A stretch of 64,000 bases of DNA, taken from positions 2,014-66,013 of the forward strand of contig JAKAPM010000003.1 in NCBI GenBank assembly GCA_021807085.1, read 5' to 3'. The translations under genes and the position numbers were made by a program. Source of the stretch: Nanobdellota archaeon (GTDB lineage: Archaea > Nanobdellota > Nanobdellia > Parvarchaeales > Parvarchaeaceae). Each line of letters begins with the position of its first letter. Position 1 is the stretch's first letter. The notes under the pieces are model-generated. The model saw only the letters and a program-made list of their open reading frames with translations, had not been told where the DNA came from and made no database searches. Positions 5,478 to 49,198 of the stretch are shown piece by piece.

Positions 5478-6152
5478 ATGAGAGCTCTAGTCCTGTCGCT
5501 AGGGATAGCGTTCGTAGTGATATTCGTGCTACTGTTCCTGCTAGTGAATTATAATACCATCTACAAATGGGATGAATCCGCGTTCCTACTGATTAATTCC
5601 ACGTTCAATGTTTCGTATCTTAACGGCTTTTTTGCTGCCCTGTCTATTTACGGAAGGGAGTACTTTTGGGTGCCCGTAGTGATACTGTTGTGGCTGTTGG
5701 GCAAGGAGAACGGCAAGAAAACTGCACTTATGATGGTGATTGTATTCGTGCTTGTCATAATAATAGGGTTCGCCCTGAAAGATGTCTATTACAGGCCTAG
5801 ACCGTTCCTTTCTATTGTCAACGCGATAGTGCTGGTTCCAAAAGATTTTGATTCGTCCTTTCCTTCCGGCCACGCTCTTGTGGTGGCCGCGGGTGCCACC
5901 GTAGCGTTCCTTATGCTCAAGAAACGCTATTCTATACCTCTGCTGATCGAGGCTGCGCTGGTGATATACTCAAGAGTGTATGTTGGAGTGCACTACCCAA
6001 CAGACGTCGTTGCCGGGCTGTTTCTCGGAGCCGCCATTGCTCTAATAACTTACGCCCTTTTAGTCGATTCAAGGGTATTCAGGACGATTTCAGAGGCTTT
6101 GATTTCTATCTATAGTAAGGTTATCTCCACCGTTAGATTGAAACGTATCTGA
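5478..6152 (+). CDS. PAP2-family membrane phosphatase (phosphatidic acid phosphatase type 2 superfamily)
   Basis: 224 aa polytopic protein with PAP2 motifs KxxxxxxRP (YYRPRPF), PSGH (SFPSGHA) and SRxxxxxHxxxD (SRVYVGVHYPTDV). Confidence 0.75.
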   Translation: MRALVLSLGIAFVVIFVLLFLLVNYNTIYKWDESAFLLINSTFNVSYLNGFFAALSIYGREYFWVPVVILLWLLGKENGKKTALMMVIVFVLVIIIGFALKDVYYRPRPFLSIVNAIVLVPKDFDSSFPSGHALVVAAGATVAFLMLKKRYSIPLLIEAALVIYSRVYVGVHYPTDVVAGLFLGAAIALITYALLVDSRVFRTISEALISIYSKVISTVRLKRI

Positions 6153-10294: not shown

Positions 10295-11368
10295 ATGAAA
10301 AGTGCGCACTTGTTTTTGATCGCGCTGGCGGTCGCCGCACTGCTGGTTAGCGGTGTTAGCGAGGCTAACGCGTCTTCAGTATCCGCCTCTTTTTCTGTGC
10401 TGAATACTACAGTAGGGATAAACGGCAACGTTTTCTTCAATGTATCAGCAACTTTCCCAAACCAGACTAACTATTCTATTTATCTGAACAGCACCAAAAT
10501 CTACTCTAGTTCGTTTCAGGCTGGATATAACGGTTACAAAATTGTGGCGTACAACGTATCCAACAGATATTACGGTCTCTACCAACCTTCCGTAAGATTC
10601 AGCATCATGAACGCACCTTTGGATTCAAACACTTCACTTTATGTAAAGCCGACTTCTGGGTTCGGTTTTGTCGACTATACCAACATCACGGAAGAGGTAA
10701 ACAATACCGCGTCCATAATGATAAAAATACTGAATTCCGGCAATACACCGCTGAATTTCAGCTGGTTTCTACCTGTTATAAAAGGCATATCAATCAGCCT
10801 GAACTTTAACCAGAGCTTCAGACTGTTTCCAGGGGGAATATACTCCATCCCGATACATTTCGGCCTCTCGAACAGTTACCAGAGCAACATAAGTTTCCAG
10901 TTCAGCGCAAAGTTCATGGACGTGATGATGACGAAAAATTACACAACCTCCATAATCAAGCCGGTGGTGAATTTCACACTAGAGTCTCTCAAGACCGCTA
11001 AACTGAACAGCACGACACAGCTGTGGTACGCAAACATCTTAAATTTCAACAATGTGCCAATAAACGCGACACTAGAATTCTTGCTCAGTTACAACAACAG
11101 CAGGTTTTATTATAATAAGTCCTATCTTATAACCCCCTCTACCAAGAACATCTCAGTTTTGCTGCCGGAGAGCAAAATCTTGTCTGTAACCTTGTTTTAT
11201 CCTTCATCATCTCTCGCAACGGAGAGCCAGGAGCTATTTTCCGCACCTCAACCAACTGCGAGTATACTGAGTGGACTGTCCGGCGGCCTGGGCTACATAG
11301 TGCTTACAGTCTTGATAATAGTAGTATTTGTGGTCATACACTTAAGGGTGAACAGGAGGAAGAGATAG
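10295..11368 (+). CDS. Secreted/surface glycoprotein (signal peptide, numerous N-x-S/T sequons, C-terminal TM anchor)
   Basis: 357 aa. N-terminal hydrophobic signal (LFLIALAVAALLVSG), more than 25 NxS/T sequons, C-terminal TM (YIVLTVLIIVVFVVI) followed by a basic tail. No recognised catalytic motif. Confidence 0.5.
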   Translation: MKSAHLFLIALAVAALLVSGVSEANASSVSASFSVLNTTVGINGNVFFNVSATFPNQTNYSIYLNSTKIYSSSFQAGYNGYKIVAYNVSNRYYGLYQPSVRFSIMNAPLDSNTSLYVKPTSGFGFVDYTNITEEVNNTASIMIKILNSGNTPLNFSWFLPVIKGISISLNFNQSFRLFPGGIYSIPIHFGLSNSYQSNISFQFSAKFMDVMMTKNYTTSIIKPVVNFTLESLKTAKLNSTTQLWYANILNFNNVPINATLEFLLSYNNSRFYYNKSYLITPSTKNISVLLPESKILSVTLFYPSSSLATESQELFSAPQPTASILSGLSGGLGYIVLTVLIIVVFVVIHLRVNRRKR

Positions 11369-11369
11369 C

Positions 11370-12056
11370 ATGAAACTACCACTGCAGCAGTTGAAAAGCG
11401 GACGCTGGATATTCGAGATATACGTGGTCGCGGCGACAATTATGCTGTTTCTGTTCGCGTTTTTGTACTTAGGGCTGCCCGTAACGGTAGTAGATGTGCT
11501 CGCCTTCGCTGCGGTCGGATTTGCATTTATATTTTTCAAAAAACTAGTGGCACTTCTATTCAATGTGCATGTAAGCGGAAATATATGGATAGCCGGCATA
11601 ATCTTTTCCGTTGTGGCGACGCTGATAGCGTCTAGTTTCGGCATGCCGATAATAATACCTTTGTTCAACTTCAACAAGTACAGCAGAAGGAAAACACTCA
11701 CAGGGCTTAAAAGGGGGGAGATAAACGCACACGAAAAATGGAAGGTAGCTGTGTTCTCCACGCTGGCGCTTTCATTCATCGCCATGCTTACTCTACTTGC
11801 ATGGGGAAGGTACGGTGGAATCACCTTTTTCGCAGCCGGAATCGCCATTGCGATGTTCGTTTTGGTGGATTTTCTTCCCTTCGAAAAATTCGACGGTACT
11901 ACGCTGATTTACCACAACAATTTGGTTTATTATATTACATTTATGCTGTTAATCCTGTTCACAGCCACCGGTTTGATATCATACAGTTGGGTACTTCCGG
12001 TTTTCATAGCTCTCCTGGTTTTCAACATCGCTACGTATATAATGAACCTCTGGTAG
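11370..12056 (+). CDS. Polytopic integral membrane protein, function unknown
   Basis: 228 aa, about 6 predicted TM helices; start 2 nt after the glycoprotein stop, so probably co-transcribed. Confidence 0.4.
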   Translation: MKLPLQQLKSGRWIFEIYVVAATIMLFLFAFLYLGLPVTVVDVLAFAAVGFAFIFFKKLVALLFNVHVSGNIWIAGIIFSVVATLIASSFGMPIIIPLFNFNKYSRRKTLTGLKRGEINAHEKWKVAVFSTLALSFIAMLTLLAWGRYGGITFFAAGIAIAMFVLVDFLPFEKFDGTTLIYHNNLVYYITFMLLILFTATGLISYSWVLPVFIALLVFNIATYIMNLW

Positions 12057-12108: not shown

Positions 12109-13467
12109 ATGAATGAGTCTGCGATATTTAGAGCCTACGACATAAGAGGGGTTTACGGCCAGGAACTGGATGAGGAGGCAGCACTTCTAGTTGGAAAGGC
12201 GGTTGGCACGTACGCAGGTGACGGTAAGTATGTCGCCGTCGGGAGGGATGTGCGCCTCAGCAGTGATTCCCTGCACGAAAAAGTGGTTGAAGGTATAATC
12301 TCTACTGGCTGCAATGTGGTAGATTTTGGCATAATACCCACCCCTCTTCTCTATTTCGGGGTGAACCATGAGAATCTATCTGGTGGTATAATGATAACTG
12401 CTTCGCACCTACCACCAGAATGGAACGGCTTTAAGATAGTCAAGGAAAAGGGCTTCATACTGTCCGATGGCACAGGATTGGAGAATATACACAACATATT
12501 CACAAAAAGGGCCTTCGCGACAGCCACCACCTCCGGCAAGGTCGCCGACATGTCAATATTGGACAAATACAAAAGATTTTGCGTGGAAAATATACCTCCC
12601 GGCAAGAGGCTGAGCGTTGTGCTCGACTATGCCAACAGCGTAACTTCCCTCGTGGCTGGGGACATAATAAGGAAACTCGGATTCGATGTTCACGAGATAA
12701 ACAAGGAACTGGATGGAACATTCCCCAACAGAGCATCCGAACCGAGCGAAGAGTCACTCCAGGGCCTAAAAAAAGAGGTTTTGGAGAGGAAGGCCGATAT
12801 AGGGATAGGCTATGATGGCGACGGTGATAGAGTGGCTTTCGTGGACGAAAGAGGGAGGATATTTGCTTCAGGCGATGTAACGATACCAATTCTTACCAAA
12901 CATTTGATGGGCAGAAAGGGGCCGGGAAAGGTCGTGCTTGATGTCACGTGCTCTCTGGCCATGGCTGACTACTTAAAAAATCTAGGGGCGGAACCGATAG
13001 TCGTCAGGACGGGGCACGGGTACTGCGTCCAGGCCGTGCTGGAGAACAATGCCCTGATAGGGGGGCAGTTCAGCGGGCATATAGCCCTGCCGGATGCCAA
13101 CTGCGCGGATGATGCCATATACGCCAGCCTCATCCTGCTGGATGCGCTAGTATCGAGTAGTGCGAAACTGTCCGAGCTAGTGGATTCTGTACCAAGCTAT
13201 AGCACTACTAAAATGGAACTGGTCGAGTGTCCAGATTCAGAGAAATTTGGAGTAATGGAGAAAGTGAGGGGTCTGGCCCGAAAATTGGATTATGATAAAC
13301 TAGAAATAGATGGAGTGAAGCTCATCGGCGATGATGGGGGGGTCCTGATAAGGGCTTCCAATACATCTCCTTTTATCCGCATAAGCGCAGAAGGCAAAAC
13401 AAAAGAAAAAGCAGAGGAATTTCACAGAACTGGGAAGACTCTGCTCGTAGAGGCGATGGGCGCATGA
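12109..13467 (+). CDS. Phosphomannomutase/phosphoglucomutase-family phosphohexomutase (candidate phospho-sugar or phospho-acetylglucosamine mutase)
   Basis: 452 aa. Active-site TASHLPPEWNG (phosphoserine loop) and GYDGDGDRVAF metal loop. Divergent in sequence from the second mutase at 991..2277. Confidence 0.8.
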   Translation: MNESAIFRAYDIRGVYGQELDEEAALLVGKAVGTYAGDGKYVAVGRDVRLSSDSLHEKVVEGIISTGCNVVDFGIIPTPLLYFGVNHENLSGGIMITASHLPPEWNGFKIVKEKGFILSDGTGLENIHNIFTKRAFATATTSGKVADMSILDKYKRFCVENIPPGKRLSVVLDYANSVTSLVAGDIIRKLGFDVHEINKELDGTFPNRASEPSEESLQGLKKEVLERKADIGIGYDGDGDRVAFVDERGRIFASGDVTIPILTKHLMGRKGPGKVVLDVTCSLAMADYLKNLGAEPIVVRTGHGYCVQAVLENNALIGGQFSGHIALPDANCADDAIYASLILLDALVSSSAKLSELVDSVPSYSTTKMELVECPDSEKFGVMEKVRGLARKLDYDKLEIDGVKLIGDDGGVLIRASNTSPFIRISAEGKTKEKAEEFHRTGKTLLVEAMGA

Positions 13468-14624
13468 TAAAACAGGCAGTTATACTGGCTGCGGGAAGGG
13501 GTAACAGGATGAAAAAAGGCTCTATCGACCCCACTATCCTCAACACCCCCAAGCCGCTGCTGAGGGTCAACGGAACGCCGATGATAGAAACCATAGCCGA
13601 CAAGCTGGTTTCGCACGGGATGGAAGTCATCGTGGTGGTCCACCCTGAGGATAAGAAGAAGTTCGAAGATGCCCTTTCCAAATATGTTGGGAATATAACC
13701 TATTGCCTCCAGGAAGACAGACTCGGCACCGCTTCGGCGCTGTACGCTGCGAAGGATGCAGTAAAGGACGATCTTTTCCTGGTTTTCATGGGCGACGACA
13801 TCACCAAATATGACATAGATAATATAAGAAAGACCACTCGTCCGTCTGTATTCGGCTATAGAGTCGATGACGTTAGCGGCTACGGGGCTCTCTTGTTAGA
13901 CGGAGACGAGGTTCTTGACATACTCGAGAAGAAACTCAACGGGCCAGGAGTAGCCAACACTGGCGTGTACGTCATGCCCCACGCTTTTTTTGACATCTAC
14001 AGCAGTATACCTAAAGATGAGAGGAGCGGGGAATATTTCCTGACGCATGCTGTAAGGCTGCTGAGAGACGCAAACACGAAATTTTATCTGAGAAACATAG
14101 ACTTCTGGTTTGGTGTAAACACACCAGAACAGCTGGCGGCTGCAAATGCAACATTCAACTTGGCTTCTAGGAATGGGCTGTCGGACAACGAGCAGCTGAG
14201 GCTTATAACAAGGGATGACCTAAAGGAGGTCCTTAATGTTTTGTACCAGCTCAGTCCGCCAGGTGGAAAAGACGACGCTATGTCACCAGAAATTCTGTCT
14301 TCCGTGCTTGGCGAGATAATCGCAGATAAAAACCACCATATGGCTGTTTATGAGGATAACAGTAGAGTAGTCGGCACTGCCACTCTTCTTGTGCAGAGAA
14401 ATCTATCGCATGGGGGAAAGCCTTACGGGCACATAGAGAATGTTGTGGTGGACAATAGTTACAGGGGTAAAGGAGTCGGTTTGAAGCTTCTCAAATACCT
14501 CATAAACATTGCAAGGGAAGAGGGCTGCTACAAGCTCGTGCTGAACTGCAACGACAGCAACATTCCTTTCTACGAGAAGATAGGTTTCAGGGTGCACGAA
14601 AGAGAGATGCGTCTCGATTTGTAA
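13464..14624 (+). CDS. Bifunctional fusion: N-terminal GlmU/RmlA-like sugar-1-phosphate nucleotidyltransferase plus C-terminal GNA1-type (glucosamine-6-phosphate N-acetyltransferase-like) GNAT domain
   Basis: 386 aa. N-terminus AVILAAGRGNRM matches the nucleotidyltransferase G-x-G-x-R loop of GlmU/RmlA. C-terminal ~160 aa aligns collinearly with eukaryotic GNA1 as I recall it: ...LITRDDLKEVLNVLYQLS...SPE...VVGTATLLVQ...HIENVVVDNSYRGKGVGLKLL...CYKLVLNC...FYEKIGFRV. Overlaps the upstream mutase by 4 nt. Confidence 0.75.
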   Translation: MIKQAVILAAGRGNRMKKGSIDPTILNTPKPLLRVNGTPMIETIADKLVSHGMEVIVVVHPEDKKKFEDALSKYVGNITYCLQEDRLGTASALYAAKDAVKDDLFLVFMGDDITKYDIDNIRKTTRPSVFGYRVDDVSGYGALLLDGDEVLDILEKKLNGPGVANTGVYVMPHAFFDIYSSIPKDERSGEYFLTHAVRLLRDANTKFYLRNIDFWFGVNTPEQLAAANATFNLASRNGLSDNEQLRLITRDDLKEVLNVLYQLSPPGGKDDAMSPEILSSVLGEIIADKNHHMAVYEDNSRVVGTATLLVQRNLSHGGKPYGHIENVVVDNSYRGKGVGLKLLKYLINIAREEGCYKLVLNCNDSNIPFYEKIGFRVHEREMRLDL

Positions 14625-14707: not shown

Positions 14708-15064
14708 ATGTCTGAACTGTTTTGTGCGAAGGTTATAACCGAATTGATGCCATCGGTAAGATCGTTTGTTTCCAACAAGCTAATCCAAAGCGGTCTGAGC
14801 CAAGAAAAGACCTCTTCGCTACTAGGCGTGACTCAACCAGCCATCTCACAATACAAGAAAAAAGTGAGGGGTGCGCTATACAAACAGATGGAGGCTAACG
14901 ACAAATTCTCTAGCTACCTCTGCAAGATATCAGACGACATTCTTTCCCACAACACCGATATCAACGCAAAGACATGCGAGATATGCAGAAAGGCCAAAGC
15001 GTCCGGCCTGTTTGAAAACGGAAAATCATCGAACTATCTGTGTCTGTCGGAAATAGGTAGTTGA
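14708..15064 (+). CDS. Small HTH transcriptional regulator with C-terminal Cys cluster (candidate Fe-S/metal-sensing regulator of suf)
   Basis: 118 aa. HTH GLSQEKTSSLLGVTQPAISQY. C-terminal cysteines in YLCKIS, KTCEICRK and YLCLSE (4 Cys). Ends 12 nt before sufC on the same strand. Confidence 0.5.
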   Translation: MSELFCAKVITELMPSVRSFVSNKLIQSGLSQEKTSSLLGVTQPAISQYKKKVRGALYKQMEANDKFSSYLCKISDDILSHNTDINAKTCEICRKAKASGLFENGKSSNYLCLSEIGS

Positions 15065-47143: not shown

Positions 47144-49198
47144 TTACACCTCTAACGATTTCAACAAAAGTTCTATGTCTGTAGTGGACTTACCTTCTTT
47201 GTCAGAAATGTTGAGAGTGAGGGGTGGTTTTATGCCTCTGGCGGAGAGCCGGCTCTCGAAAACATCAGGATCTTCGCATTGGTAGAAGATCCCTGTATGC
47301 ATATTATCCGGATTCTCGCTGAGCAACATCTTAAGCGCTCCTAGCTTCTTATCGTCTACCTCATTCTTATCCGATGGGTTCTTAACCATACCATCATATT
47401 CCTGCGGCAGCGGTTTGAGGTGCTGGTTGAACCACGCGGCGGACGTGAATTCCGGGTTATAAGTAGGACATCCCTGCATTATGTCGACCAGAGCAAGGCC
47501 TTTGTGCTTTATCGCCGCTATCATAACATCTGACATCTCTTTCACCTTGAAGCTCTGCGTCCTCGCAACGAAAGTGTAACCCGCCATTATCGCTAGCGAC
47601 AGGGGATTAAGTGCACCATTTATGTTCGGAGCGGGGAGGGATTTGGTTTTTCTCCCTTCTGGTAGCGTTGGACTTGCCTGGCCTTTCGTGAGCGAGTAAA
47701 CGCCGTTATCGTGCACGAACAATTTTATGTCAACGTTCCTTCTGCCAGCGCTTATGAAATGCCCGACACCTATACCATACGTGTCACCGTCACCACTGTC
47801 TATGAGCACATTTAGATCTGGATTTGCGAGTTTTATCCCCTCTGCAAACGGTATAGCTCTTCCGTGGAGAGTGTGCACGCCGTTGACATTAACAAGATGA
47901 GGCAGCTTGGAGGAACATCCTATCCCGGAAACTATTACTGTCTTGTTGGGATCCAGTCCGGCTTCCACTATCGCGGTCTTAACACCGAGGACTATCCCCG
48001 AGTCACCGCAGTTATGCAGCGTCGCTGAATTGCTTACATAAGAATTTACATCCTCAACTTCGAAGTTGTAAACCGGACCGTTGTAATAGAAACTGTCCAA
48101 GCTTCTTATCCTGAGGTACAAATAACTATCATCTCGGAATGACATAAAGTGCGCTGCATCGGAAATTTTTGCTTCTTCCGATTTTATCCCAAATAATTTT
48201 ATAAGTCCATTGTAGTGGCTGTTTTTTACTTCGATAGAATAAGACTCTTTGTGGATCCCATAAGATTTATTTTTGTATACATACGGAACTATGGACTGCC
48301 TTAGTAAGAGCATCTTTATCTGCTCTTTTAGAACAGGTGAAATTGTCTTGTATCCCGTCCTCAATTTTTGAGTATTGATGAATCCATCACCTCTCCACAA
48401 TCCTACTAGTAGGTGTATCTGCTTTTTCGGGGGCAGCAGCACAAGATTGTGCGGAATTCTTTTCTCCGCAGCGCAGTCACCGAACCATTCCAAAAATATC
48501 TCTGATAGATATGATGAACTTACATGCACTTCTATAGAGCCTTTTTTTGCCGATCTGTCCTTTATAGTAGCAGCCAATCCGAATACTTTGGAGAAAAGTT
48601 TCTTCGCATCTTCAGCGAGTTCTTGTTCAGTTTTTCCAAACGTTAGTACTATCTCTCTTTCATGTACATTTCCTTCTGCTATGTAATAGCCTGCCAGTTT
48701 AAGAAAATCGCTGTCAACCTTTATTTCTGCGGGCAGCGATTTGCTTCGTGTATCCTTCTTTTTCTTTTTGTATGCTATCGAAAGTGTATCGATGTCTATT
48801 TCGGCCTTCATCACAGGGTAAGCGACATAGTCCCCAACGTTTAACTTCTCGGCTTCGACCCATTCTGTTTTGATAGAGCCTCTAGCAACGTTCTCTTTTC
48901 TTACAATCAGCGCTGGGTGTTCATTCGTTAGAGTAGTCTCACCGAAGTAGGCAGTATTAAGTCGGTATATCCTTCCTTTGTGTATATGAGTCATGACTTC
49001 GTCTATTCTGTGAAAGTACCCATCGCTTCCAAGAACTTTATCTCCTACTTTAAACGCCTGTATCGCTTTTGCCGAAGGATTTCCTATTATTATATTGTCG
49101 GGGAGCAGGCAGCCAGGACACCAGTCGTTGAATTCGTTCGATGTGAGACTGGACACTGTCGTCTGTTTTTTCAACCGGTCATCGCTTTCAGTAGGCAT
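47144..49198 (-). CDS. korB: 2-oxoacid:ferredoxin oxidoreductase beta subunit (KorB/OorB, TPP-binding) interrupted by an in-frame intein
   Basis: 684 aa precursor. Exteins (29 + 288 aa) rejoin to WCPG/CGDSGIVLG..., the canonical KorB N-terminal CPGCG motif. Also GDGDTYGIG (TPP-binding GDG) and GCPTYNPE. The intein occupies residues 30-396. Confidence 0.85.
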   Translation of the reverse strand: MPTESDDRLKKQTTVSSLTSNEFNDWCPGCLLPDNIIIGNPSAKAIQAFKVGDKVLGSDGYFHRIDEVMTHIHKGRIYRLNTAYFGETTLTNEHPALIVRKENVARGSIKTEWVEAEKLNVGDYVAYPVMKAEIDIDTLSIAYKKKKKDTRSKSLPAEIKVDSDFLKLAGYYIAEGNVHEREIVLTFGKTEQELAEDAKKLFSKVFGLAATIKDRSAKKGSIEVHVSSSYLSEIFLEWFGDCAAEKRIPHNLVLLPPKKQIHLLVGLWRGDGFINTQKLRTGYKTISPVLKEQIKMLLLRQSIVPYVYKNKSYGIHKESYSIEVKNSHYNGLIKLFGIKSEEAKISDAAHFMSFRDDSYLYLRIRSLDSFYYNGPVYNFEVEDVNSYVSNSATLHNCGDSGIVLGVKTAIVEAGLDPNKTVIVSGIGCSSKLPHLVNVNGVHTLHGRAIPFAEGIKLANPDLNVLIDSGDGDTYGIGVGHFISAGRRNVDIKLFVHDNGVYSLTKGQASPTLPEGRKTKSLPAPNINGALNPLSLAIMAGYTFVARTQSFKVKEMSDVMIAAIKHKGLALVDIMQGCPTYNPEFTSAAWFNQHLKPLPQEYDGMVKNPSDKNEVDDKKLGALKMLLSENPDNMHTGIFYQCEDPDVFESRLSARGIKPPLTLNISDKEGKSTTDIELLLKSLEV
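48011..49111 (-). mobile_element. Full-length intein with LAGLIDADG homing-endonuclease domain inside korB
   Basis: 367 aa. Block A CLLPDNIIIG (Cys1); block B LTNEHPAL (TxxH); LAGLIDADG motifs LKLAGYYIAEGNV and LLVGLWRGDGFI; block F/G VYNFEVEDVNSYVSNSATLHN, then the +1 Cys of the extein CGDSG. Codon boundaries were checked by reverse complement: residues 396/397 = N/C at 48013-48008. Confidence 0.85.

Follow-up and report, generated by a model that had tools for sequence, protein, structure and literature searches.

A candidate mosaic route to UDP-GlcNAc in an uncultured archaeon: a nucleotidyltransferase fused to a GNA1-like acetyltransferase beside a phosphohexomutase

The synthesis of UDP-GlcNAc, or uridine diphosphate N-acetylglucosamine, follows one textbook order in prokaryotes, where GlmM is followed by GlmU acting on glucosamine 1-phosphate (GlcN-1-P), and another in eukaryotes, where GNA1 acetylates glucosamine 6-phosphate (GlcN-6-P) and is followed by AGM1 and UAP1. 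GNA1 is a strand-swapped homodimer with its active sites at the interface. Here, we analyzed a stretch of 64 kb from a Nanobdellota archaeon (hereafter the window), in which a phosphohexomutase gene overlaps a gene encoding a nucleotidyltransferase (NT) fused to a GNA1-like acetyltransferase of the GNAT type. The host is an uncultured acidophilic archaeon. We think it probable, on comparative grounds, that these two overlapping genes account for the three final steps leading to UDP-GlcNAc, arranged as a re-ordered mosaic.

The closest logic described so far is that of Mimivirus, in which a GNAT acetylates at the level of the 6-phosphate and is paired with a uridylyltransferase of prokaryotic type resembling GlmU-N: L619 is a GFAT, L316 a GNAT acting on GlcN-6-P, and R689 a bacterial-type uridylyltransferase (PMC4691112). 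The virus has these as separate genes and does not encode a mutase, whereas the activities in the window are fused or adjacent, translationally coupled to a mutase, and present in cellular archaea. We found no description in the literature of a prokaryotic GNA1-type pathway or of an NT-GNAT fusion, an absence that is no proof of novelty, and the available part of a study mining thermophilic GNA1 enzymes does not describe the NT-GNAT architecture (PMC9829697).

The fused protein and its nucleotidyltransferase domain

The module lies on the forward strand and has the following components:

12109..13467 (+), alpha-D-phosphohexomutase of the 'Q-type' subfamily, 452 amino acids (aa), with Pfam domains PGM_PMM I-IV
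13464..14624 (+), bifunctional protein, sugar-1-phosphate nucleotidyltransferase plus GNA1-like N-acetyltransferase, 386 aa
13464..14156 (+), nucleotidyltransferase domain of the GlmU-N/RmlA type, aa 1-231
14157..14183 (+), flexible linker, aa 232-240, with a predicted local distance difference test (pLDDT) below 50 in the AlphaFold2 (AF2) model
14184..14621 (+), GNA1-like GNAT domain, aa 241-386, identified by sequence, profile and fold

The open reading frame (ORF) of the 386-aa protein starts within the stop of the mutase ORF (ATGA, an overlap of 4 nt), and the coordinates and the architecture are as they had been described in the initial annotation. The Pfam scan of the protein gave the expected NTP_transferase at the N-terminus (aa 5-229, E=1.9e-20) and Acetyltransf_1 at the C-terminus (aa 284-375, E=6.9e-21), and found no hexapeptide or left-handed beta-helix (LbH) domain in it. 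The AF2 model of the full-length protein (pLDDT 88.9), built like that of the GNAT domain as a monomer, consists of two domains with the disordered linker between them. The fusion is real and not the product of a frameshift or of an assembly error, because the same protein is found on several contigs and about 17 clusters have the same architecture. More precisely, the identical 386-aa protein is present on five contigs, of which the three shown belong to three separate assembly records (including GCA_027320385.1), and the clusters sharing the NT-GNAT architecture are found at 42-49% identity. Where names are given, these clusters are labelled Thermoplasmata, Cuniculiplasma and Micrarchaeaceae. 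An artefactual origin is thus ruled out by independently assembled contigs and by independent fused orthologues.

The N-terminal domain is homologous to that of GlmU (from E. coli, Methanococcus MMP1076, Sulfolobus tokodaii ST0452, and the model TIGR03992 Arch_glmU), and the catalytic residues of these enzymes are kept. Its best NCBIfam model is Arch_glmU (1.6e-38), with a match limited to positions 2-226 of the 393 of the model, and its sequence matches in the PDB are HddC, ST0452 and GlmU. The residues of the LAAGxGxR15 motif, K30, Q83, G88-T89, D111, E155-K156, N165 and N219 are invariant or nearly so in our alignment (A1), the last one in a 'GVN' motif as in bacterial GlmU. All the GlmU-type features are therein retained: the G-x-G-x-R loop, the lysine, the Gln and Gly-Thr of base recognition, and the Asp and Asn metal ligands. 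The domain looks catalytically competent, and the loss of catalytic residues that, according to the initial annotation, would have spoken against its reading is not observed. In a Foldseek search, the full-length model returned only nucleotidyltransferases, among which the N-domains of RmlA, GlmU and ST0452 were equally good top matches (TM-score to the target of about 0.68, root-mean-square deviation (rmsd) of about 3 A). The superposition on GlmU-N that had been suggested as a check is obtained, and equally well on RmlA.

The likeness to GlmU extends to the organization of the locus, since the protein of the window is also bifunctional and its gene is directly downstream of a phosphohexomutase, as in archaeal glmM-glmU. 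However, it cannot be classed as a GlmU: the C-terminal LbH acetyltransferase by which this family is defined is absent, and an unrelated GNAT fold stands in its place. Its acceptor is predicted to be GlcN-6-P, whereas that of GlmU is GlcN-1-P, and it would probably dimerize via the GNAT domain, whereas GlmU is a trimer via LbH. It is nevertheless predicted to work like GlmU in outcome.

The GNA1-like acetyltransferase domain

When we compared the C-terminal 158 aa with every chain of the PDB using phmmer, the nine best matches were all GNA1 enzymes (GNA1/GNPNAT1, EC 2.3.1.4). The first one is GNA1 of T. brucei (2e-29), with a majority of the 92 aligned residues identical, followed by those of C. 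elegans, A. fumigatus, yeast and Arabidopsis. The human enzyme matches at 3.6e-15, so that the alignment with human GNA1 in the initial annotation was qualitatively right. We then scored the PDB chains with a family profile of 41 clade members (alignment A2), and the GNA1 enzymes obtained values from 2e-33 to 2e-26. The only other structures with comparable scores are the uncharacterized prokaryotic 2dxq (6e-30) and 1z4e (4e-23), and the next GNAT from any other family has 2e-12, i.e., is worse by more than 10 orders of magnitude. Since the full-length model had given only nucleotidyltransferase matches, the GNAT domain was modelled separately (pLDDT 93.2). The Foldseek ranks 1 to 28 of this model are all occupied by GNA1, 2dxq or 1z4e, with TM-scores of about 0.8 and an rmsd of 1.6-2 A for most matches other than those of T. 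brucei. Hence, sequence, profile and structure agree in placing the domain nearer to GNA1 than to generic GNATs.

The alternative of a generic or regulatory GNAT (a RimI-like protein, or one acetylating antibiotics or polyamines), fused by chance and resembling GNA1 only at the level of the superfamily, is very improbable given these results. It could draw on the best NCBIfam model of the domain, RimI, which matches at 6e-11 and well below its cutoff (the ArsN and AAC models are also far below), on the recent date of the fusion in this lineage (see below), and on the public annotations. The latter are generic for all parts of the module: 'GNAT family N-acetyltransferase' and 'histone acetyltransferase' for the acetyltransferase, next to 'dTDP-glucose pyrophosphorylase' and 'phosphomannomutase'. 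However, we rejected the matches to RimI, ArsN and AAC as signs of a generic GNAT, because no GNA1 model was seen among the matches of the domain in the NCBIfam library. The top PDB matches are all GNA1, other GNATs except 2dxq and 1z4e are more than 10 orders of magnitude behind, and the association between NT and GNAT is maintained across Thermoplasmata and DPANN together with glmS and the mutase. The generic reading is thus largely refuted by the PDB, profile and Foldseek results and by the adjacency to glmS.

To map the active site, we used the phmmer alignment to carry over the residues of C. elegans GNA1 (CeGNA1) for which roles are described (E104, D105, V106, K136, C141, Y149 and M161; PMC3413214) and scored their conservation in 17 fusions:

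aa 241-386, motifs of the domain: QLS, GHIE325-N326-V327, RGKGVG (acetyl-CoA pyrophosphate loop), K357, C362, Y370 and M382-R383
E325, for CeGNA1 E104, which binds the sugar 3-OH: invariant
V327, for CeGNA1 V106, whose backbone contacts the acetyl carbonyl: invariant
K357, for CeGNA1 K136, which binds the 6-phosphate: invariant
C362, for CeGNA1 C141 (yeast C135), a conserved Cys: invariant
Y370, for CeGNA1 Y149 (yeast Y143), the catalytic Tyr: invariant
M382, for CeGNA1 M161, a conserved Met: nearly invariant

The domain has the fold of GNA1, whose members (especially T. brucei 3FB3/3I3G) are its closest sequence relatives, and keeps the catalytic Tyr, the Glu and Val of the beta bulge, the Lys of the 6-phosphate site, the Cys and the Met. 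It differs by its HIEN motif and by being fused to, or encoded beside, a nucleotidyltransferase, and its GNA1-type activity is predicted. In the beta4 bulge, which reads Glu-Asp-Val/Ile in GNA1 (yeast E98-D99-I100), E325 and V327 are kept and the Asp is replaced by Asn326.

This replacement is a signature of the clade. A search with a word index had scored only 69 candidates, and we therefore relied on an exhaustive search of representatives to estimate the size of the family, which gave 1992 representatives at E<=1e-10. The close prokaryotic relatives have GHIENVV, usually with a C-terminal end of the type E(V/I)EMRxDL, and the remaining representatives, including the eukaryotic GNA1s of solved structure, have HxEDVVV. 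A neighbor-joining (NJ) tree, computed without support values, splits the Asn-type and the Asp-type sequences in the same way. Because of this signature and of this grouping, we place the domain in a prokaryotic sister group of GNA1, the HIEN clade, and not in eukaryotic GNA1 proper. The qualification 'eukaryote-type' given to it in the initial annotation thus holds for the similarity to GNA1, which is specific, but not for the affiliation.

The characterized enzyme closest to the prokaryotic clade is GNA1 of T. brucei (105 bits, versus at most 68 for other eukaryotes). This protein (3FB3/3I3G) has the MRLDL C-terminus of the clade but the eukaryotic Asp, which hints at an unusual history of GNA1 in kinetoplastids. 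The two prokaryotic structures mentioned above, 2DXQ from Agrobacterium and 1Z4E from Bacillus halodurans, score in the range of GNA1, and 2DXQ shares the IEN and CYK motifs of the domain. However, both are standalone proteins, and 2DXQ has no EMRxDL tail within the part that aligns and falls outside the main NJ clade of the window domain. One of the two is annotated as 'acetyltransferase' and the other as 'transcriptional regulator', and they may be unrecognized amino-sugar-phosphate acetyltransferases. Finally, many of the best representatives (P0166, P0167, P0169, P0170, P0173, P0175 and others) are proteins of 290-440 aa in which a GNA1-like domain of the Asp type (HxEDVVV) occurs twice in tandem. 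These proteins may mimic, within one chain, the strand-swapped dimer in which the enzyme normally works, i.e., be covalent pseudo-dimers.

The partner mutase and the genomic context

The mutase belongs to the same alpha-D-phosphohexomutase superfamily as AGM1/PGM3 and GlmM and has the four loops of these enzymes. Its best NCBIfam model is Arch_GlmM (TIGR03990), with 391 bits for a cutoff of 439, and the nearest solved structures are the Pyrococcus-type and Pseudomonas phosphomannomutase/phosphoglucomutase (PMM/PGM). Aligned with its relatives, it has the following loops:

12397..12429 (+), phosphoserine loop TASHLPPEWNG, with Ser99 and with Leu101 in place of the near-universal Asn of TASHNP
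12814..12831 (+), metal-binding loop DGDGDR, conserved in all the mutases linked to the module
13060..13080 (+), sugar-binding loop GGQFSGH, with Gln320 in place of the canonical Glu
13351..13371 (+), phosphate-binding loop RASNTSP

The Glu of the sugar loop, the ligand of O3 and O4 of the sugar in Pseudomonas PMM/PGM, is present in all three aligned relatives of solved structure, and it is a Gln in 13 of the 14 mutases linked to the module. We surveyed both motifs in the 120 closest homologs (P0314-P0433). About 33 of them, including the mutase of the window and the 23 best matches, combine TASHLP with GGQ[FY]SGH, while about 87 combine TASHNP with GGExS[GSN]H. The two motifs covary in every homolog where both loops can be read. 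Given these differences from AGM1 and GlmM (TASHLP and GGQ[FY]SGH versus TASHNP and GGExSxH, and a score under the Arch_GlmM cutoff), we assign the mutase to a separate 'Q-type' subfamily of the superfamily, neither an AGM1 ortholog nor a clear Arch_GlmM equivalog. The reaction predicted for it is that of AGM1, and the motif pair looks like a specificity signature for phosphohexomutases.

The two types of mutase differ in their neighbors. In five neighborhoods of E-type mutases (those with the Glu) that were analyzed, the next downstream gene is an archaeal GlmU with NT and LbH domains in three cases (L042, L044 and L046), and none of the five has a GNA1-like gene downstream. The Q-type mutase is followed by NT and GNA1-like coding regions in the window, in 14 loci of the genome scan described below, and in L039, L040, L048 and L049. 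The operon position is therefore homologous, an E-type mutase preceding NT-LbH and a Q-type mutase preceding NT-GNA1. Such a pattern is expected if acetylation moved ahead of the mutase, changing its substrate from a phosphate of GlcN to one of GlcNAc, and the substitution pair that tracks the GNA1-type partner is indirect support for the mutase acting on GlcNAc-phosphate. We also observed, at 6001..8070 of L041, a protein of 689 aa (P0333) in which a Q-type mutase is fused directly to NTP_transferase, with no GNA1-like gene within 6 kb, and thus a further way in which parts of this pathway are fused.

We scanned the genomes of species representatives and obtained 35 loci. In 14 of them, the NT and GNAT coding regions are directly preceded by a mutase homolog, and in L014 the contig holds only the 3' end of a mutase-type gene upstream of NT and GNAT. 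The genes called in L039 (Cuniculiplasma sp.) and L040 are glmS (GATase and SIS domains), mutase and NT-GNAT, in this order, on one strand and flanked by glycosyltransferases. We found glmS by tblastn in the same position and on one strand in L006, L007, L017, L023 and L029. In L026 and L028, glmS is followed by a GNAT-NT pair about 220 and 900 nt downstream. Overall, Thermoplasmata and DPANN share the adjacency or fusion of NT and GNAT, at 40-55% identity and in linkage with glmS and the mutase. The orthologs are therefore found in glmS-mutase-NT-GNAT operons among glycosyltransferases, and not in an unrelated pathway. Within the window itself, tblastn identified neither glmS nor an LbH-type GlmU. 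There are also solo GNA1-like genes that adjoin glmS, both in DPANN archaea (L024 Iainarchaeum, L027 and L033) and in bacteria (L030, unclassified, and L031, Vermiphilus of the Dependentiae), and over about 6 kb no mutase is present in any of these five loci. The HIEN clade is further represented in Ratteibacteria and in one gammaproteobacterial metagenome-assembled genome (L034 and L032), and the predicted route of GlcN-6-P acetylation may thus not be confined to archaea.

The product of GlmS is GlcN-6-P. As the GNAT is repeatedly beside glmS, often without a nearby mutase, the simplest explanation is that it uses GlcN-6-P. The mosaic route of 6-phosphate acetylation, mutase and uridylylation, first proposed from the window alone, gains support from this comparative operon context. 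One could instead imagine that the bacterial order is kept: the mutase would be an ordinary GlmM, the GNAT would acetylate GlcN-1-P in the stead of LbH, and NT would uridylylate GlcNAc 1-phosphate (GlcNAc-1-P). We regard this as unlikely, even if it accounts for several observations. The GNAT is exactly where the LbH domain sits in a glmM-glmU-like operon, both fused activities would be consecutive as they are in GlmU, archaeal GlmM is the best model of the mutase, and the change from Asp to Asn could mean that the sugar is bound in another way. However, the domain shares Lys357 and the entire phosphate-binding strand at the C-terminus with enzymes acting on GlcN-6-P, especially T. brucei GNA1, and the solo members of the clade are next to glmS in the five loci lacking a nearby mutase (L024, L027, L030, L031 and L033). 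Neither does the bacterial order explain why the mutase has two covarying substitutions only when its partner is of the GNA1 type.

Acetylation could also come last, on UDP-GlcN, after the mutase and NT, or the module could make another NDP-HexNAc. GNATs acting on NDP-amino sugars do exist (e.g., PseH and WecD), the domain has a weak NCBIfam match to PseH (E=1.8e-3), the gene order mutase-NT-GNAT would equal the reaction order, and neither sequence nor fold fixes the nucleotide and sugar specificity of NT. We find this possibility quite improbable, as GNA1 scores far better than GNATs of the PseH type or any others and the solo copies adjoin glmS. Furthermore, the compact acceptor pocket of GNA1, at the dimer interface and with conserved phosphate ligands, suits a sugar monophosphate (PMC3413214).

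The relatives also inform on the history of the fusion. NT and GNAT form a single ORF in the window and in seven related loci (L002, L006, L007, L017, L023, L039 and L040), and they are separate adjacent genes in 13 loci, with gaps from -26 to +27 nt (Parvarchaeota, Nanoarchaeota and Thermoplasmata, where labelled). L049, which is the nearest relative, matches the window in the order of its genes: complex-I subunits, a large protein similar in size to the sequon-rich surface protein described below, a 228-aa protein, mutase, NT, GNAT, a 119-aa protein, SufC, SufB and SufD. In this locus NT (237 aa) and GNAT (150 aa) are separate genes with an overlap of 8 nt. A mutase cluster (P0315, 73% identical to the mutase of the window) and an NT cluster (P0006/P0121, 68% identical) may come from this same lineage. 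The domains of the window are closer to the split forms than to other fusions, its linker is 8 aa longer than in the latter, and comparison with the split L049 reveals that the linker (...SRNGLSDNEQ...) consists of the old C-terminus of NT merged with the old N-terminus of GNAT. A single ancient fusion is thus ruled out, given the split state of the nearest syntenic relative and the greater proximity of the window domains to split forms. Since the closest syntenic relative has two overlapping genes, the fusion appears to be recent in the lineage of the window and evolutionarily labile. Such recent and recurrent fusion and fission argues for a tight functional coupling of the two activities.

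Proposed pathway, neighboring genes and significance

We propose the following pathway. GlmS, encoded elsewhere in the genome but adjacent in relatives, would make GlcN-6-P, which the GNA1-like domain would acetylate with acetyl-CoA to give GlcNAc 6-phosphate (GlcNAc-6-P). In this reaction, the CoA thiolate would be stabilized by Tyr370, the oxyanion hole would be provided by the backbone of Asn326 and Val327, and the 6-phosphate would be bound by Lys357 and Arg383. The Q-type phosphohexomutase would then convert GlcNAc-6-P to GlcNAc-1-P via phosphoserine Ser99, and the GlmU-type N-terminal domain would uridylylate GlcNAc-1-P to UDP-GlcNAc, feeding glycosyltransferases that make surface glycans. 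That the product is UDP-GlcNAc is highly probable. That GlcN-6-P is acetylated before the mutase and uridylylation steps is more probable than not. From an evolutionary point of view, the module may derive from an archaeal glmM-glmU operon in which a GNA1-type GNAT took the place of the LbH acetyltransferase of GlmU, with an accompanying change in the active site of the mutase.

Several observations weigh against this proposal. In the acetyltransferase, Asn326 occupies throughout the prokaryotic clade the position of the Asp that binds the sugar 4-OH (CeGNA1 D105, yeast D99), and the acceptor specificity could differ for this reason, although an Asn can still make hydrogen bonds in place of Asp. 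In addition, the phosphate-binding Arg (worm R164) is found two positions earlier than in the yeast and worm enzymes (R383); its placement, in 'EMRLDL', equals that of the validated GNA1 of T. brucei ('QMRLDL'). The nearest relatives of the mutase are archaeal GlmM and PMM/PGM, and eukaryotic AGM1 is not among them. Its two substitutions, Leu for Asn beside the phosphoserine and Gln for Glu, would presumably lower the polarity of the site around C2. The association between Q-type mutases and NT-GNAT is in part affected by ascertainment bias, as most loci were found with an NT-GNAT query and only three of the Q type with the mutase as the query. Neither the fold nor the sequence of the NT domain separates UTP from dTTP or GlcNAc-1-P from glucose 1-phosphate. 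Finally, the fused domains would perform steps 2 and 4 of the pathway, which are not consecutive, while acetylation of GlcN-1-P would make them so, as in GlmU.

Two genes upstream of the mutase and three other regions of the window were annotated:

10295..11368 (+), sequon-rich secreted and membrane-anchored protein, 357 aa, with a signal peptide and a C-terminal transmembrane segment, a possible consumer of the product
11370..12056 (+), multi-pass membrane protein directly upstream of the mutase, 228 aa, with a gene of 228 aa in the same position in L049
14708..15064 (+), protein of 118 aa that weakly matches HTH_3, encoded downstream of the fusion gene and ahead of sufC-sufB-sufD, with a counterpart of 119 aa in L049
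31386..38252 (+), cluster encoding a subtilase-like protein (829 aa), a T2SSE-type secretion/pilus ATPase (746 aa) and a protein without Pfam match (709 aa)
47147..49198 (-), beta subunit of a 2-oxoacid:ferredoxin oxidoreductase (TPP_enzyme_C, PFO_beta_C) split by an intein with a LAGLIDADG homing-endonuclease domain

The first protein has 20 N-x-S/T sequons, compared with 7.1±2.3 in shuffled sequences, and a gene of 370 aa occupies the equivalent position in L049. The initial annotation had placed heavily glycosylated surface proteins upstream of the module; the sequon-rich anchored protein is indeed there and is plausibly a glycoprotein, but its glycosylation is inferred only. Neither this protein nor that of 11370..12056 matches a Pfam family. 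Both genes may be co-transcribed with the mutase, as genes of matching size and order are found in L049 (790..2591). The product of 14708..15064 may be a regulator of the Suf operon. No tRNA gene was found in the 64 kb of the window.

We give even chances to a broader proposal, namely that DPANN, Thermoplasmata and some host-associated or candidate-phylum bacteria have an undescribed route to UDP-GlcNAc, in which a GNA1-type enzyme performs the acetylation, a GlmM-derived mutase with TASHLP and GGQ[FY]SGH has converged on the function of AGM1, and NT and GNAT have fused repeatedly. The genus Cuniculiplasma has cultured members, and as one of the named relatives from this genus has the fused form, the prediction should be directly testable. 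The implications would first be practical. The automated annotations of the GNAT, NT and mutase genes would be corrected, the apparent gaps at GlmU in metabolic reconstructions of DPANN and Thermoplasmata would be explained, and sequence signatures would become available to predict the specificity of mutases. The enzymes are compact and possibly tolerant to acid or heat, and could be of use for the production of GlcNAc and UDP-GlcNAc. If the module works as predicted, it would also show, as a clean example from nature, how a domain of GlmU can be displaced by a non-homologous one, and possibly how the active site of a partner mutase changed in step with the displacement. There would then be a pathway in cellular prokaryotes with the step order of eukaryotes and the parts of prokaryotes. 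If the broader proposal is true, the acetylation step regarded as 'eukaryotic' would have a sister lineage among prokaryotes, a point relevant to how the hexosamine pathway of eukaryotes arose.

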